DNA of 60,550 nucleotides from a virus (Duplodnaviria; Heunggongvirae; Uroviricota; Caudoviricetes): the IMG/VR virus record IMGVR_UViG_2844443253_000004; one strand, written 5' to 3'. The position numbers and the translations under genes were made by a program. This document shows positions 21,816 through 31,401 of this stretch, one piece after another. The notes beneath the pieces are model-generated. The model searched no databases and had not been told where the DNA came from. It saw only the letters and a list, made by a program, of their open reading frames with translations. The number at the start of each line of letters is the position of its first letter. Position 1 is the first letter of the stretch.

Positions 21816-22607
21816 TTAAGCAGCCATCTGATGATATTTTTCCCTGAAGGCTGCCGGGGAGATATTCCCCAGACGAGAGTGACGACGCTGACGATTGTAG
21901 AAAATCTCAATGTATTCCCGTATTACTGAGATGGCTTCATCCCGGTTATTAAAACGATAGTGGCTCAGGCTCTCATTTTTCAGCGTTCCCCAGAAGCTTT
22001 CCATCGGAGCGTTGTCGTAACAGTTACCTTTACGCGACATTGATGTTTTCAGACCAGACTGCTCCTGTATGACCCGGTAATCGTATGCGCAGTACTGTGA
22101 ACCTCGATCAGAGTGGTGGATTAGCCCGGCAGGTGGGCGCTGGCTCCTGAGCGCCATAAACAGGGCTTTACCTGTCAGCTCTTTTGTCATGCGCTCTCCC
22201 ATGGCGTAGCCGACAATTTCGCACGTATAAACATCTTTGATGCCAGCAACATACGTCAGGTCCGCCACCCAGACCTGATTTGGTGCTGTAGGAGCGAACG
22301 TCTGGTTCAGCAGATTTGGCGCAACTGGCAGATTGTGGTTCGGGTTCGTAGTCGCTCTGAACTTGCGTTTCTGCTTACAGCGTAGCCTCAGCTCCTTACG
22401 AAGACGTGCCAGTCGGTCACGACCAACGATGATGCCATTCTCTGCCAGCTCCGTCTGGAGCCGCCGGGTTCCATATGTTTCGCGAGTGCGGATATGTGCC
22501 ACCTTAATCTCCAGTTTTAGCCGCTCATCACTTTGTTTTCTGTCTGAGGGTTCATGCTGTACCCAGTTGTAATAACCGCTCCTGGATACACCAAATACCT
22601 GACACAT
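21816..22607 (-). CDS. IS600 OrfB, 9-aa internal deletion variant
   Basis: identical to copy 1/3 OrfB except the missing 9 residues. Confidence 0.8.
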   Translation of the reverse strand: MCQVFGVSRSGYYNWVQHEPSDRKQSDERLKLEIKVAHIRTRETYGTRRLQTELAENGIIVGRDRLARLRKELRLRCKQKRKFRATTNPNHNLPVAPNLLNQTFAPTAPNQVWVADLTYVAGIKDVYTCEIVGYAMGERMTKELTGKALFMALRSQRPPAGLIHHSDRGSQYCAYDYRVIQEQSGLKTSMSRKGNCYDNAPMESFWGTLKNESLSHYRFNNRDEAISVIREYIEIFYNRQRRHSRLGNISPAAFREKYHQMAA

Positions 22608-22642
22608 CGCTTCAATGGGAAATTGTTGTCGCCATTGTTCGA

Positions 22643-22945
22643 TTAACGCGTATTTTTCAGCGACTCCTGTGCAAAATACGCTGTTGCTTTTTTTAATATA
22701 TCGCGCTCAAGGCGAGCTTCATTTAACGCCTTACGCAGTTGCAGAATTTCAGATTCCAGTTCAGCCACCGTGCGGGAACCAGGAGTACCGAGCCCTTTTC
22801 TGGCGGCGGTAACCCATTGTCCTAAAGTGCCTTCAGGAAGGGATAATCGGGAAGCGCCTTCACTGATCGAAAGTTGATTTTCAAGAACCGTTCTGACAGC
22901 TTCGGCTTTGAACTCTTTAGAGTAACGTTGGGTTTTTCTGCTCAT
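22643..22945 (-). CDS. IS600 OrfA
   Basis: identical to copy 1 OrfA. Confidence 0.88.
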   Translation of the reverse strand: MSRKTQRYSKEFKAEAVRTVLENQLSISEGASRLSLPEGTLGQWVTAARKGLGTPGSRTVAELESEILQLRKALNEARLERDILKKATAYFAQESLKNTR

Positions 22946-23009
22946 TATTAGCTCCTTCTGATGCCATTCTATTTCAGGAAGGAGTGTCCGTTAAACTCAG
23001 GCTACCTCA

Positions 23010-23117
23010 GTCAGCGCTGGAACGACGAGAAGCCAGAAACCATTCAACCACAATCCAGACCATCATCCGCAATCACCGTATCGAAAACTGGCTATGTGTT
23101 TTTCGACAGGTGAACCA
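23010..23117 (+). pseudogene. 3' remnant of an unidentified gene cut by IS600
   Basis: open frame ...QRWNDEKPETIQPQSRPSSAITVSKTGYVFFDR-stop begins at the IS600 boundary. Confidence 0.3.
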
Positions 23118-23220
23118 TGAAATCAAAAATCAAATCGCTACTGGTCGCTGGTTATAACCACGGCTGGTTAAGTATTTCGTTTGTCGATTTCTGGTTTAAA
23201 AATCTCAATCTGAGGGAATC

Positions 23221-25046
23221 ATGAGGCCAAGTGAACTTAGCGACCTGCTTTGGGCGCAGGTTGACAGGGTGGCTCCGCACCTGTTGCCAAACGGCAAGAT
23301 AGAGGGGCATGAGTGGGTTGCCGGTAACGTCAACGGTGACAAGGGAAACAGCCTTAAGGTCAACCTTATCGGCAAGAAAAAATGGGCTGATTTCGCTGAG
23401 GGAGACGGCGGTGACATGCTTGATTTGTGGATGGCATGTCGTGGAATTAACCTGCATCAGGCTATGCAGGAAGCGAAAGCATTTCTCGGTATCAAGGATG
23501 ACGATCACCATTTCGATGCCAGACGTGAGAAGAAATTCTCCAGACCTGATCGTAAGAAAATCGCCCGCTACGTTACCAGAACAGAATCCCATCTTGAGTA
23601 CCTGCAATCGCGTGGCATATCGCCAGAAGTCGTAAAGCGCTACGAGGTTGTCAGCGGCAAGGTGTGGAATGGAGAACGAGAACTGGATGCTCTGGTGCTT
23701 CCGTACAAACGCGATGGTGAGTTGTTGCAGGTCAAGCGAATCAGCACTGAGCGCCCGGACGGGAAGAAAGTCATTATGGCAGAAGGTGATTGCGAACCTT
23801 GCCTGTTCGGATGGCAGGCTCTGGACGCTGGCGTGAGGGTGGTTGTGCTTTGCGAAGGCGAAATTGATTGTATGAGCTATGCGCAATACGGCATCTCGGC
23901 GTTATCCGTGCCGTTTGGTGGCGGGAAAGGCGCTAAGCAACAGTGGATTGAGTTTGAGTATCACAACCTCGACAGGTTTGAGGAAATATTCATCTCGATG
24001 GACGTTGATGATGTTGGTCGTGAAGCCGCAAGGGAAATCGTAAGCCGACTCGGTGAACATCGTTGCCGTCTTGTTACTCTGCCGTACAAAGACATCAACG
24101 AATGCCTGATGAACGGTGTTACCGAGGATGAAATCTGGCAGTACATCGGCACGGCATCCTACTTCGATCCTGAAGAACTCTACAGTGCGCGAGAGTTTTA
24201 CCAGGACACTATCAACGCTTTCTACGGCAAGCAGCAGTATCTGTTTAATCCACCGTGGGAATCTCTGGCAGATAAATTCCAGTTCCGTGAGGCAGAGTTG
24301 ACGCTGGTCAATGGTGTGCACGGTCACGGAAAGGCATGCCCACTGAATGAGCCTATTCTTTTAGCTGATGGGACATGGACTACTCACGGGAATGTAAAAA
24401 TTGGCGATCAGGTGGCGTCAGTAGACGGCAATCCGTCAACTGTCACTGGGATATTCCCGCAGGGTGTTAGAGATGTTTACCGAGTCACATTTGAAGATGG
24501 TCGTTATGTTGATTGCGCAGGCGATCACCTATGGGAGGTCACTAGTCGTGGATTCACGAAAGGCGAGAAACGCCGCGTGATAGATACCTTCGGGTTGAAG
24601 CGGTTGAGTGAAACGAAGAGGCACAAAAATGGCGTTAGGATTCCTGAAATAACTGGTGACTTTGGCGACCACTCAGAGCCATTAGCATGGGTTATCGGCT
24701 CCCTTCTCGGGGATGGTAGTCTTAGCAATGGGAGCGTGAAGTTTTCAAACGTCGAGCCATACATGATCGAGCGTATGAAGGCTGAACTGCCTGATTACAA
24801 CTTCTCTGGAGATGGTAAGGACTGGCTGATATCAACGGCGCGTGGTCAGGTAAATCCACTCATGGAGACCCTGCGAGGTTATGGACTAATGGGGTGCACA
24901 GCAAAAAACAAATTCATCCCTCGTGTGTTTTTTTCCGCAAATAAATCAACGCGTATAGGCATGCTGTGTGGTCTGCTTGAAACGGATGGGTATGTCGAGA
25001 AGGATGGAACGCTTGTTTTTTCCTCAGCAAGTGAAGAACTGCGCAA
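23221..25046 (+). pseudogene. phage DNA primase/helicase (TOPRIM + P-loop helicase) with intein-like insertion at the Walker A motif; 3' end removed by IS911
   Basis: TOPRIM motifs (VVVLCEGEIDCMS, ISMDVDDVG); Walker A LVNGVHGHGK followed at Cys373 by Hint/LAGLIDADG blocks; last codons come from the IS911 terminus. Confidence 0.7.
24337..25046 (+). other. intein (Hint domain + LAGLIDADG homing endonuclease), N-terminal about 237 aa retained
   Basis: Cys at the first position directly after GHGKA; block B-like DCAGDHLW; LAGLIDADG motifs LAWVIGSLLGDGSL and IGMLCGLLETDGYV about 90 aa apart; KFIP block D between them. Confidence 0.65.
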
Positions 25047-25054
25047 TGAAGTGG

Positions 25055-28493
<3,439 letters not shown>

Positions 28494-28585
28494 TGGAGCA
28501 CCTGTGTTGTTCTGAGGTGAGCATATCACCTCTGTTCAGGTGGCCAAATTCAGTGTGCCACTTCAGACATTCTGAGGTGACAGCG

Positions 28586-29464
28586 ATGATGACGTTTAAC
28601 CTGCGTGAACAACAAAAAAGACTACAGGCGCGAATGGATGAGTTACGGGCAGAGATTGCATTTGCTCAGAAGGGCGAAAAGCCATGGCCTTATCGTTCCT
28701 GCCTGATGCGTGAAGGTCGCGGATATTGCGAAAAACATGGCGAATATCACACGCATATACTGGTGTGGAGCGATCGTAATGGCGAGGACAGAGAAGAAAT
28801 TTCATGCTGCCCTGACTGCTTAATCGCTGAGGCCAACGATTTGACCATGGAGCTGTCGTCCATCAAGGCGGAAGAGCTGACTGATAACGCCGGAATTGCC
28901 CTGCGTTTTCGGGACTGCGAGTTTGATAATTATCTGGAGGTTAATCCTGGCGCAGCCAGAAATCTTGCGGCCTGTCGCCGCTATGCGGAGAACTGGCCAG
29001 ATATGCTGGAGAACGGTACCAGTCTTGTTATGACCGGCAGTTGTGGTACCGGAAAAAATCATCTGGCTGTGGCTATGGCAAAACACATCATCCGTAACTA
29101 TCTGGCCAGTGTGGAGATCACCGACGTGATGCGCCTTACCCGTGCTGTGAAAAATTGCTGGCGGAATGACAGCGAAAAAACAGCGGATGAAGTTATTGAG
29201 CGTTATGCGTCAATGGATTTGCTGATCATCGACGAAGTTGGCGTTCAGTTTGGCAGCGCGGCTGAAATGGCTATTTTGCAGGAAATTATCAACGCCAGGT
29301 ACGAAAGTATCTTGCCCACCATTCTGATCAGTAACCTCTCACCGGAAGAGTTGTGGGCGTTCATCAGTCCCCGAATTGCCGACAGGATCACAGACGGGGG
29401 ACGCAACTGGTTGTCGTTTAACTGGCCCAGTTACCGTTCTCGTATCAGAGGTGTGGCTGCATGA
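28586..29464 (+). CDS. phage replication protein, DnaC-like AAA+ helicase loader
   Basis: Walker A GSCGTGKNHLAVAMA and Walker B DLLIIDEVG; N-terminal Cys-rich region. Confidence 0.7.
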   Translation: MMTFNLREQQKRLQARMDELRAEIAFAQKGEKPWPYRSCLMREGRGYCEKHGEYHTHILVWSDRNGEDREEISCCPDCLIAEANDLTMELSSIKAEELTDNAGIALRFRDCEFDNYLEVNPGAARNLAACRRYAENWPDMLENGTSLVMTGSCGTGKNHLAVAMAKHIIRNYLASVEITDVMRLTRAVKNCWRNDSEKTADEVIERYASMDLLIIDEVGVQFGSAAEMAILQEIINARYESILPTILISNLSPEELWAFISPRIADRITDGGRNWLSFNWPSYRSRIRGVAA

Positions 29465-30852
29465 CAACTCCAGTATGGCGTAACGATGACCTTGAAGGCG
29501 CTGTCATCGGCGCGTTCTTTCTGCGCGGAGCAGATCCTGAAGTGATGGATATTCTGGCCACACTGCCAGCGGACGTTTTTTCTGTACGAGCGTATCAGGA
29601 TATCTATACAGGCATCTGCAGACAGGCCCGTGTTTCAGGAGTGATTGACCCCGTGCTGTTGTGTAATGAGATGCCGGAACTTGCCCCGGTGATTACTGAT
29701 ACCGGGCGTAAAACCTGGGTGAAGTCTTCACTGGAGCACTATGTTGCAGCGTTGCGGCGCAATGCCGCACTGCGCGATGCAGAAAAAACACTGAATGAGG
29801 CGCTGCAGAAATTACGTGATGCGCATACCTGTGAAGCAGCTGAAGATGCCCTGAAGGATGCGCAGAACATGATGGTCACACTGTCGACAGGAAAGGGCGT
29901 CATTCAGCCGGTACATATTGATGATGTGCTTCCGGAAGTGGTTGAGCGTGTTGAATGCCGGAATCAGGGGCTGGAGAAATCCAGGACGTTGATGACCGGT
30001 ATTGATGAACTGGACGCAAAAACAGGCGGTATGGAGCCCGGAGACCTGGTATTCATTGCCGCCCGTCCTTCGATGGGGAAAACCGAACTTGCGCTGGACA
30101 TCATCGACAAGGTGACTGAGCAGGGGCATGGTGTGCTTCTGTTCACCATGGAGATGGCGAACATCCAGATTGGTGAACGTATGGTGTCTGCGGCTGGAGG
30201 GATGCCAGTATCACGCCTGAAATCTGTGGCTCACTTTGAAGATGAAGACTGGACGCGTTTCTCACAAGGGGTGGGGCGGATGACCGGGCGCAATATCTGG
30301 ATGGTGGACCAGGCGAACCTGGCCATTGATGAGATATGCGCAACAACGAAACACCACCTGATTAAATATCCGGAAACGGCGCTGGTGGTGGTTGATTATC
30401 TCGGGCTGATAAAAACCCGAACCACGGGGCGTCATGACCTTGCCGTGGGTGAAATCTCAAAGGGGCTTAAAGGCCTGGCAAAATCCGGTGGTTTTCCGTT
30501 GATTGCGCTGAGCCAGCTCTCCCGCGGTGTGGAGTCCAGACCCAATAAACGTCCCATGAACTCAGACCTGAAAAATTCCGGAGAAATAGAGGCGGATGCA
30601 GACATCATTCTGATGCTTTACAGGGATGAAGTGTACAACCCGGATACGCAGGCCAGGGGCATCGCAGAAATCAATATCACGAAACAACGTAACGGTTCTC
30701 TGGGAACGATTTACCGGCGTTTTTATAACGGACATTTTCTGCCTGTGGACCAGGAAAGTGCACGGGTGCTTTCCACTCCCATGAAGCCCGGCAATCCGCG
30801 CAGATACAGTAATAAACGAACTGACAGCAGTAAGATGGAGCGTTTCTTTTGA
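29461..30852 (+). CDS. replicative DNA helicase, DnaB-like
   Basis: 463 aa with DnaB-type motifs (...FIAARPSMGKTELALDI..., ...VVVDYLGLI...). Confidence 0.8.
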   Translation: MTTPVWRNDDLEGAVIGAFFLRGADPEVMDILATLPADVFSVRAYQDIYTGICRQARVSGVIDPVLLCNEMPELAPVITDTGRKTWVKSSLEHYVAALRRNAALRDAEKTLNEALQKLRDAHTCEAAEDALKDAQNMMVTLSTGKGVIQPVHIDDVLPEVVERVECRNQGLEKSRTLMTGIDELDAKTGGMEPGDLVFIAARPSMGKTELALDIIDKVTEQGHGVLLFTMEMANIQIGERMVSAAGGMPVSRLKSVAHFEDEDWTRFSQGVGRMTGRNIWMVDQANLAIDEICATTKHHLIKYPETALVVVDYLGLIKTRTTGRHDLAVGEISKGLKGLAKSGGFPLIALSQLSRGVESRPNKRPMNSDLKNSGEIEADADIILMLYRDEVYNPDTQARGIAEINITKQRNGSLGTIYRRFYNGHFLPVDQESARVLSTPMKPGNPRRYSNKRTDSSKMERFF

Positions 30853-31106: not shown

Positions 31107-31197
31107 TGCGCCATGAGTTTGTTTTGCCCTGGCTTGTGCGCGATCATTATGTCCCTGGTGGAAAGCCCGGGATAAAAATCACCGAACCGGAGAGTAT

Positions 31198-31401
31198 TTG
31201 ATGAGCGTCAAAATTCAAACGATACCGGAACTGCTTATCCAGACACGAGGTAATATGACCGAAGTTTCACGAATGCTGAACTGTAATCGCGCCACGGTAA
31301 GAAAATATGCTGAAGATAAAGAGGGCAAAGGGCACGCCATTGTTGATGGTGTTCTGATTGTTCATCGTGGATGGGACAGGGGTAAAGACAGTGATGCGTG
31401 A
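31198..31401 (+). CDS. ninH: NinH-like protein
   Basis: [37 protein letters not shown]...IVHRGW, resembles P22/lambda NinH as recalled. Confidence 0.65.

Follow-up and report, generated by a model that had tools for sequence, protein, structure and literature searches.

A truncated LAGLIDADG intein, probably of class 3, in the P-loop of a lambdoid prophage primase-helicase

Class 3 inteins have no N-terminal nucleophile and carry a Trp-Cys-Thr (WCT) triplet formed by Trp at position 12 of block B (B:12), Cys at position 4 of block F (F:4) and Thr at position 5 of block G (G:5) (PMC3196547, PMC6195587). The Mycobacterium smegmatis intein DnaBi1, which has been placed in this class by crystallography and biochemistry, starts with Ala1, is inserted in the P-loop of DnaB, and uses the P-loop Ser as the +1 nucleophile (PMC6195587). 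In enterobacterial phages, an intein was described in the replication protein P of the Stx2 phage vB_EcoP_24B (phi24B), with orthologues in phage Min27 and in a prophage of Shigella flexneri 5 str. 8401 (955 of 968 residues identical) (Smith et al., 2012; BMC Genomics 13:311, PMC3430580). No mechanistic class was assigned in that study (PMC3430580), and within the searchable library our literature search found no paper giving one for the P intein. Here we describe a copy of this element in a 60,550-nucleotide stretch of Caudoviricetes DNA, IMG/VR record IMGVR_UViG_2844443253_000004 (the whole stretch is referred to as the window), where it lies in an open reading frame (ORF) at positions 23221-25080 of the plus strand. 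This fragment is, with high probability, a pseudogene that holds residues 1-238 of a 342-residue class 3 LAGLIDADG intein inserted between Lys371 and Thr372 of a lambdoid-phage primase-helicase. The P intein of phi24B, Min27 and the S. flexneri prophage corresponds to it in element, gene and insertion site; the window copy, however, ends at residue 238 at the insertion sequence IS911 and has no C-extein.

The limits of the insertion were set by comparison of occupied and empty alleles (a slash marks a junction or insertion site throughout). The aligned proteins were the window ORF, the P protein of phi24B (968 amino acids, aa), the allele of Escherichia coli FDAARGOS_944 (WP_038341800.1, 968 aa), and gp55 of phage mEp043 (626 aa), and a single clean gap of 342 residues separates the occupied from the empty alleles. 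The occupied alleles read ...NGVNGHGK/ACPLNEP...HLYVTRGYVATHN/TEVVGHMALEA..., the intein ending in the intact ones as ...ECLCIMVDHPRHLYVTRGYVATHN/T, and the empty allele of mEp043 reads ...NGVNGHGK/TEVVGHMALEA.... The intein accordingly extends from A1 to N342 (protein residues 372-713, compared with 372-702 in Smith et al., PMC3430580), with Lys at -1 and Thr at +1. An earlier reading of the same letters (the original prediction) had recognized an intein in the Walker A motif of a prophage primase-helicase, which is borne out by the 342-residue insert relative to GHGK/TEVVGH alleles; it had also let the element start with Cys at 24337. Since the empty allele restores GHGKT, the intein begins at Ala1 (codon 24334-24336), between Lys371 and Thr372 of the motif GxxGxGK/T, and the Cys is residue 2.

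The homologues that had been expected to define both splice junctions do so. In tblastn searches of phage genomes, nine records match all 608 residues at 98% identity, including the Stx2a phages Stx2_16002, F403 and F451, as well as Min27, vB_EcoP_24B, phiXuzhou21 and Klebsiella phage phiKp_30; the intein-less records (mEp043, Sf101, APC_JM3.2, epsilon34, SEN22, Oslo, and others), which are continuous alleles with 96-98% identity over the N-extein, match up to residue 372 only, one past Lys371. Synonymous differences separate the two kinds of allele in the codons on either side of the insertion, which are AAA/ACG in the empty and AAG...ACC in the occupied ones (window 24331-24336; mEp043 5111-5116; phi24B 3611-3613 and 4640-4642), and the mEp043-type empty-site DNA reads ...GGTCACGGAAAA/ACGGAGGTTGTC.... 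Differences of this kind would follow from an altered homing site in occupied alleles or from co-conversion of the flanks. The P gene is one 968-aa ORF in phi24B and in E. coli prophages, while the Min27 record NC_010237 (4001-6909) gives it as two overlapping coding sequences (CDS) of 860 aa and 111 aa, the latter annotated as 'DNA primase'; this split probably reflects a frameshift or a sequencing error within the C-extein of the Min27 entry.

By its sequence relationships, the N-extein belongs to the replication protein P of lambdoid phages of the phi24B/Min27 type. The N-extein shares 97-99% nucleotide identity with the P genes of E. coli prophages and Stx2 phages; Pfam model Toprim_2 matches aa 209-296 of the ORF (E=2.5e-11), and the Walker A sequence GVHGHGK is encoded at 24313-24333 with K371 as its last residue. 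The intein-less homologue mEp043 gp55 matches Toprim_2 (47 bits) and AAA_25 (28 bits, above the cut-off) as well as DnaB_C (23.8 bits, below it), which suggests that the host protein is a gp4-like primase-helicase. In the Pfam scan, the window copy keeps the Toprim domain and the front half of Walker A only. The ORF runs through 619 codons without interruption. Relative to the FDAARGOS_944 allele, its N-extein has seven synonymous and six nonsynonymous codon differences, counts too few to test selection; K27I, S50I, A207V, A274V and N367H occur in no other compared allele, and N367H falls inside the P-loop.

The intein fragment itself is 713/713 nucleotides identical to the intact allele of E. 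coli FDAARGOS_944 and 99.2% identical to that of phi24B, and the window copy shares 97-98% protein identity with the phi24B, Min27 and S. flexneri prophage alleles. All motifs named in the original prediction are in frame in the ORF (Table 1), including the KFIP sequence and the two LAGLIDADG motifs, whose predicted catalytic residues Asp127 and Asp218 are 91 residues apart. These motifs are not a chance pattern. Profile comparison of the intein segment alone gave weak matches to LAGLIDADG_3 (E=6e-5, 23.6 bits), above its cut-off of 22.5, and Hom_end_hint (E=9e-6, 26.2 bits), in an alignment that begins at intein residue 8, below its gathering cut-off of 32.1. With the whole ORF as query, Hom_end_hint matches aa 379-424 (E=3e-5, 24.5 bits) and LAGLIDADG_3 matches aa 579-611 (E=4e-5, 24.1 bits), again under and over these respective cut-offs. 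For the intact intein, LAGLIDADG_3 rises to 35.1 bits (E=1.6e-8, above the cut-off), the Pfam match reaching residue 263, and Hom_end_hint is again below its cut-off (E=9e-6). NCBIfam matches to residues ~376-611 are solely to the intein portions of intein-containing proteins, namely DnaB (PRK07773), RecA (PRK09519), RNA polymerase A'', radical-SAM proteins and ribonucleotide reductase. The element had been described as a mini-intein, a label that does not fit, as the intact form is full-size and endonuclease-bearing. The window copy keeps the N-terminal Hint blocks A and B (24334-24534), among them the His of block B, and these align with the solved inteins 6RIX and 6BS8. The last 104 intein residues and the whole C-extein are missing, and with them the end of the endonuclease domain, which breaks off 17 residues past LAGLIDADG motif 2, block F with Cys322, and block G with T340-H-N342. 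The window copy therefore has neither the His-Asn end nor the +1 residue, and we file it as a truncated intein remnant and not as a functional intein because blocks F and G are gone.

Table 1. Coordinates of the truncated P gene, the parts of its intein and the adjoining mobile elements in the window.
Feature	Position	Strand	Description and basis
N-extein	23221..24333	+	First 371 aa of a probable gp4-like primase-helicase; Toprim domain and linker, ends at Walker A
Intein residues 1-238 of 342	24334..25047	+	Alignment with intact and empty alleles, Pfam, NCBIfam, PDB sequence search
Block A ACPLNEPILLADG	24334-24372	+	In frame
Block B DCAGDHLW, with His65 and Trp67	24511-24534	+	D-H65-L-W67 at 24523-24534
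LAGLIDADG motif 1 LAWVIGSLLGDGSL, Asp127 (LLGD127G)	24682-24723	+	In frame
KNKFIP block	24904-24921	+	In frame
LAGLIDADG motif 2 IGMLCGLLETDGYV, Asp218 (LLETD218G)	24955-24996	+	In frame
Ten-codon tail and stop, derived from the IS911 inverted repeat, outside the intein	25048..25080	+	ORF reading; end of Min27 homology
IS911 (IS3 family), truncates the P gene	25047..28565	-	Right inverted repeat 25047-25073, left inverted repeat 28539-28565; orfA and orfB ORFs
Group II intron in IS911 orfB, 2270 bp	25534..27803	-	Limits by comparison with two intron-less junction genomes
IS600 copy, replaces the phage O gene	21773..22999	-	99.8% match to 'IS3-like element IS600 family transposase' features

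The class 3 signature is distributed over the kept and the lost parts of the intein. Position 1 is Ala, and thus not Cys, Ser or Thr, both here and in a 50%-identical relative described below; Trp67, two residues past the block B residue His65, takes the place of Trp B:12; Cys F:4 and Thr G:5 are represented in the intact alleles by Cys322 and Thr340, in the region that is deleted here. With the intact intein as query, phmmer gave as best hits among PDB sequences 6RIX and 6RIY (E=4.8e-10 and 2.1e-9), 6BS8 (E=3.9e-7) and PI-SceI (E=8e-7). In the alignment with 6BS8, His65 pairs with His65, Trp67 with Trp67, Cys322 (ECLC322IMVD) with Cys118, and Thr340-His-Asn342 with Thr137-His138-Asn139. Thus, the P intein shares Ala1, the WCT triplet and the Thr-His-Asn end with M. 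smegmatis DnaBi1 (6BS8) and Mycobacterium chimaera DnaB1 (6RIX/6RIY), and all are inserted after the Walker A Lys of a superfamily 4 (SF4) replicative helicase, such that the P-loop Ser or Thr becomes the +1 residue. However, the mycobacterial elements are mini-inteins without an endonuclease, with Ser at +1 and a DxxH block B, whereas the P intein in its intact alleles has an apparently complete LAGLIDADG domain, Thr at +1, an AxxH block B, and a probable gp4-like primase-helicase of enterobacterial phages as host; the similarity between the two spans the splicing blocks only. In PI-SceI (the VMA1 intein), a class 1 intein of a eukaryotic V-ATPase, the endonuclease core alone resembles the P intein and aligns over the K-N-(x)-I-P block and motif 2 (LAGLIDSDGYV versus LCGLLETDGYV).

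Most inteins start with Cys or Ser, and a Cys adjoins the junction of this one (ACPLNE), so that a class 1 intein beginning at 24337 and initiated by an N-S acyl shift, with the Ala as the last N-extein residue, has to be weighed; the Hom_end_hint alignment, starting at residue 8, leaves the first residue unfixed. We regard this reading as very unlikely, however, since splicing at the Cys would yield GHGK-A-TEVV, with an extra residue in the GK[T/S] of Walker A, whereas the empty alleles have GHGKT. Moreover, the 50%-identical relative carries a Met here (GMGK/AMALSE), so Cys2 is not a conserved catalytic residue, and Ala1 aligns together with all three WCT residues with the characterized class 3 inteins 6BS8 and 6RIX. 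Still less credible is a reading without protein splicing, in which the segment would be a normal accessory domain of the primase-helicase or the product of an in-frame fusion with a free-standing homing endonuclease gene. It is true that splicing of the P protein has never been demonstrated and that RefSeq labels the 968-aa product plainly as a 'toprim domain-containing protein'; however, the insert divides Walker A between K and T, which makes ATPase function impossible unless it is removed, it terminates in His-Asn followed by Thr, both of its halves match Hint splicing blocks of solved inteins, and orthologues with 96-98% N-extein identity are cleanly without it.

A further alternative concerns the window copy alone, namely that the 619-aa product, a Toprim primase joined to an N-intein, has been kept for a function, such as that of a dominant-negative replication or superinfection-exclusion factor, or because it supplies the N-half of a split intein. 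The open frame of 619 codons, the lack of substitutions in the intein part relative to the intact allele, and the occurrence of the identical junction in two public genomes could be taken in its favor. However, zero intein substitutions are equally expected after a recent event, the extein has five private nonsynonymous changes against seven synonymous ones, with one of the former in the P-loop, the upstream O gene is replaced by IS600, a C-terminal partner was not found in the window, and the break point lies within the endonuclease domain, away from any natural split site; retention for function is thus highly improbable. Returning to the truncated class 3 intein as the preferred reading, several points weigh against one or another part of it. 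Block B of the P intein is AxxH, compared with DxxH in M. smegmatis DnaBi1; the Hom_end_hint match (26 bits) stays under its curated cut-off of 32.1 bits; and we infer the class 3 mechanism from the sequence signature and homology alone, the function of the intein being, according to Smith et al. (2012), not experimentally determined (PMC3430580). A displaced C-terminal part may lie elsewhere in the genome, beyond the window, and the truncated ORF, the inert status of which we read from its sequence, may be transcribed and translated.

The most likely course of splicing and homing in an intact allele, as predicted by homology with the characterized inteins, would be as follows. In the precursor the P-loop would be broken and the protein inactive; Cys322 in block F would attack the peptide bond between Lys371 and Ala1, this Cys being assigned as the first nucleophile because residue 1 is Ala, which is unable to act as one. 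The N-extein would then be moved onto the side chain of Thr+1, cyclization of Asn342 would free the intein, and an O-to-N acyl shift would rebuild GHGKT and thereby an active helicase. The endonuclease domain, with Asp127 and Asp218, would cut intein-less alleles at AAA/ACG, and the element would spread by homing. In the window, an IS911-associated rearrangement would have taken intein residues 239-342 and the helicase C-extein, and IS600 would have taken the upstream O gene. The window copy is, as far as its remaining blocks indicate, an inert relic that cannot splice, home or make a helicase, and its host chromosome appears to be IS-rich and of the Shigella flexneri type.

The truncation point is defined from both sides. 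In blastn comparison of the Min27 replication region with the window, phage-gene homology ends at 25048; the right inverted repeat of IS911, TGAAGTGGTCAACAAAAACTGGCCACC, begins at 25047, and the TG at 25047-25048 is common to both sequences, such that the last intein codon, Asn238, occupies 25045-25047. The IS ends were located by direct pattern search, which found both terminal inverted repeats (starting TGAAGTGG), and orfA and orfB are present. From its inverted repeats and OrfA sequence, we take the element to be IS911; RefSeq features under the 99.7% matches to the unit are an 'IS3 family transposase' and ltrA. A generic inverted-repeat scan of 21400-28700 returned only two weak, insignificant pairs. 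Neither the lost intein C-terminus nor the helicase domain was found in the window by blastn with the Min27 region, which matched only 23001-25048 and a ninB-like segment at 31151-31265. The original prediction of a fossil cut by IS911 at 25047, with the C-terminal junction and C-extein gone, thus agrees with these data.

The exact junction between the truncated P gene and IS911 was found in 2 of 185,579 species-representative genomes, Shigella flexneri SFBU1023 and 'E. coli' ECMA0423, and in both of them the junction copy of IS911 has no group II intron. The intron in the window copy has its domain V/VI at 25534-25620 (Rfam RF00029, 64.9 bits, E=2.7e-11) and a reverse transcriptase/maturase ORF of 507 aa at 25624-27147. 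A second, inverted IS911::intron unit is located at 16542-20060 on the plus strand and differs from the truncating copy at 7 of 3519 positions. The flanks of the two copies are TTT/GTG (16542-20060) and CAA/GAC (25047-28565), with no 3-bp target duplication on either, so that the junction presumably arose by rearrangement or deletion and not by plain insertion. A simple inversion between the two copies was considered and rejected, as the flank triplets are unmatched both as they stand and after restoring the inversion; the locus thus has a more complex history.

Several other features of this region were noted. A 5-kb segment between the two IS911::intron copies comprises IS600, the truncated P gene and four tRNA genes; the latter stand in tandem at 20693-20999 on the plus strand, between the first IS911 copy and IS600 (Rfam RF00005, 56-70 bits). 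The IS911::intron combination occurs in ~781 complete E. coli genomes. The IS600 copy is ~27 bp short of the matched E. coli copies (1227 versus 1254 bp, in a two-piece alignment), and it adjoins the last nine bases of the O gene, the match to the phage replication module running from 23001 onward. Two short ORFs opposite the intein fragment, 24525-24764 and 24879-25061, are without support.

Among 5426 complete E. coli genomes, the P gene is present in 295 and the intein DNA in 79, each time with at least 99% identity and each time under the annotation 'toprim domain-containing protein'. The P intein is already known and is common in Stx-type prophages; presumably, its Min27 form is also the subject of an InBase entry, 'EP-Min27 Primase'. 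A tblastn search with the intact intein additionally revealed a full-length relative, likewise a class 3-type LAGLIDADG intein, with 50% identity over 342 residues in ~49 Stx2a phage records and 30 complete E. coli genomes. Inteins had been called rare in Enterobacteriaceae, which does not hold for their prophages in view of these numbers and the nine phage records with the P intein. The relative resides in a DnaB-type helicase, ...IIAARPGMGK/AMALSEGILLADGTW...ECLCIMVSHPSHLYVTTDYIVTHN/TELALKIA... (e.g., LC487996, BBL33594.1; phage 981509, 1898-4291), and shares with the P intein Ala1, HLW, ECLCIMV, THN/T and the GK/T site; its residue 2 is Met, whereas the P intein has Cys. Once its intein is removed, the Stx2a DnaB helicase does not align significantly with the P protein (E=0.16), so that related inteins share the P-loop position of two very divergent SF4 helicases. 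RefSeq features under the Stx2a DnaB matches are separate N-terminal-domain and C-terminal-domain DnaB-like helicases.

The window encodes a DnaB-type helicase of its own at 29461-30852 on the plus strand (463 aa), which is intein-less and has the empty site ARPSMGK/TELALDII. It is 30-46% identical to the intein-bearing Stx2a DnaB, and the alignment breaks exactly at K207/T208. A DnaC/IstB-like ATPase gene (28586-29464, plus strand; IstB_IS21, 1.5e-15) lies upstream of it, just outside the left end of IS911.

The window copy matters little in itself, being a decayed prophage gene that marks an IS911-associated rearrangement. Intein-aware annotation would help with this family, given the RefSeq label 'toprim domain-containing protein' and the split CDS of Min27. 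Two aspects are mildly new: the intact alleles combine a class 3 signature with an apparently complete LAGLIDADG endonuclease, and a 50%-identical relative is inserted at the same point of the P-loop in a DnaB-type helicase from this phage pool. The P intein would thus be an endonuclease-retaining class 3 intein in a genetically tractable E. coli phage. A bolder idea, which we consider improbable at present, is that the intact alleles are conditional, e.g., redox-gated, class 3 inteins; a second, related one is that inteins of this type jump between host genes of one phage pool in a P-loop-directed manner, which the two 50%-identical inteins at the shared GK/T site of two dissimilar helicases would document. 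The redox idea is modeled on M. smegmatis DnaBi1, in which H2O2 drives the block F Cys into a disulfide bond; in the P intein, Cys2, Cys61 and Cys320 are located near the predicted catalytic Cys322 in sequence. Both ideas concern the intact relatives and not the inert window copy. If true, conditional splicing would gate the replicative helicase of Stx2 phages, and could thereby influence phage replication and Shiga-toxin output after induction.

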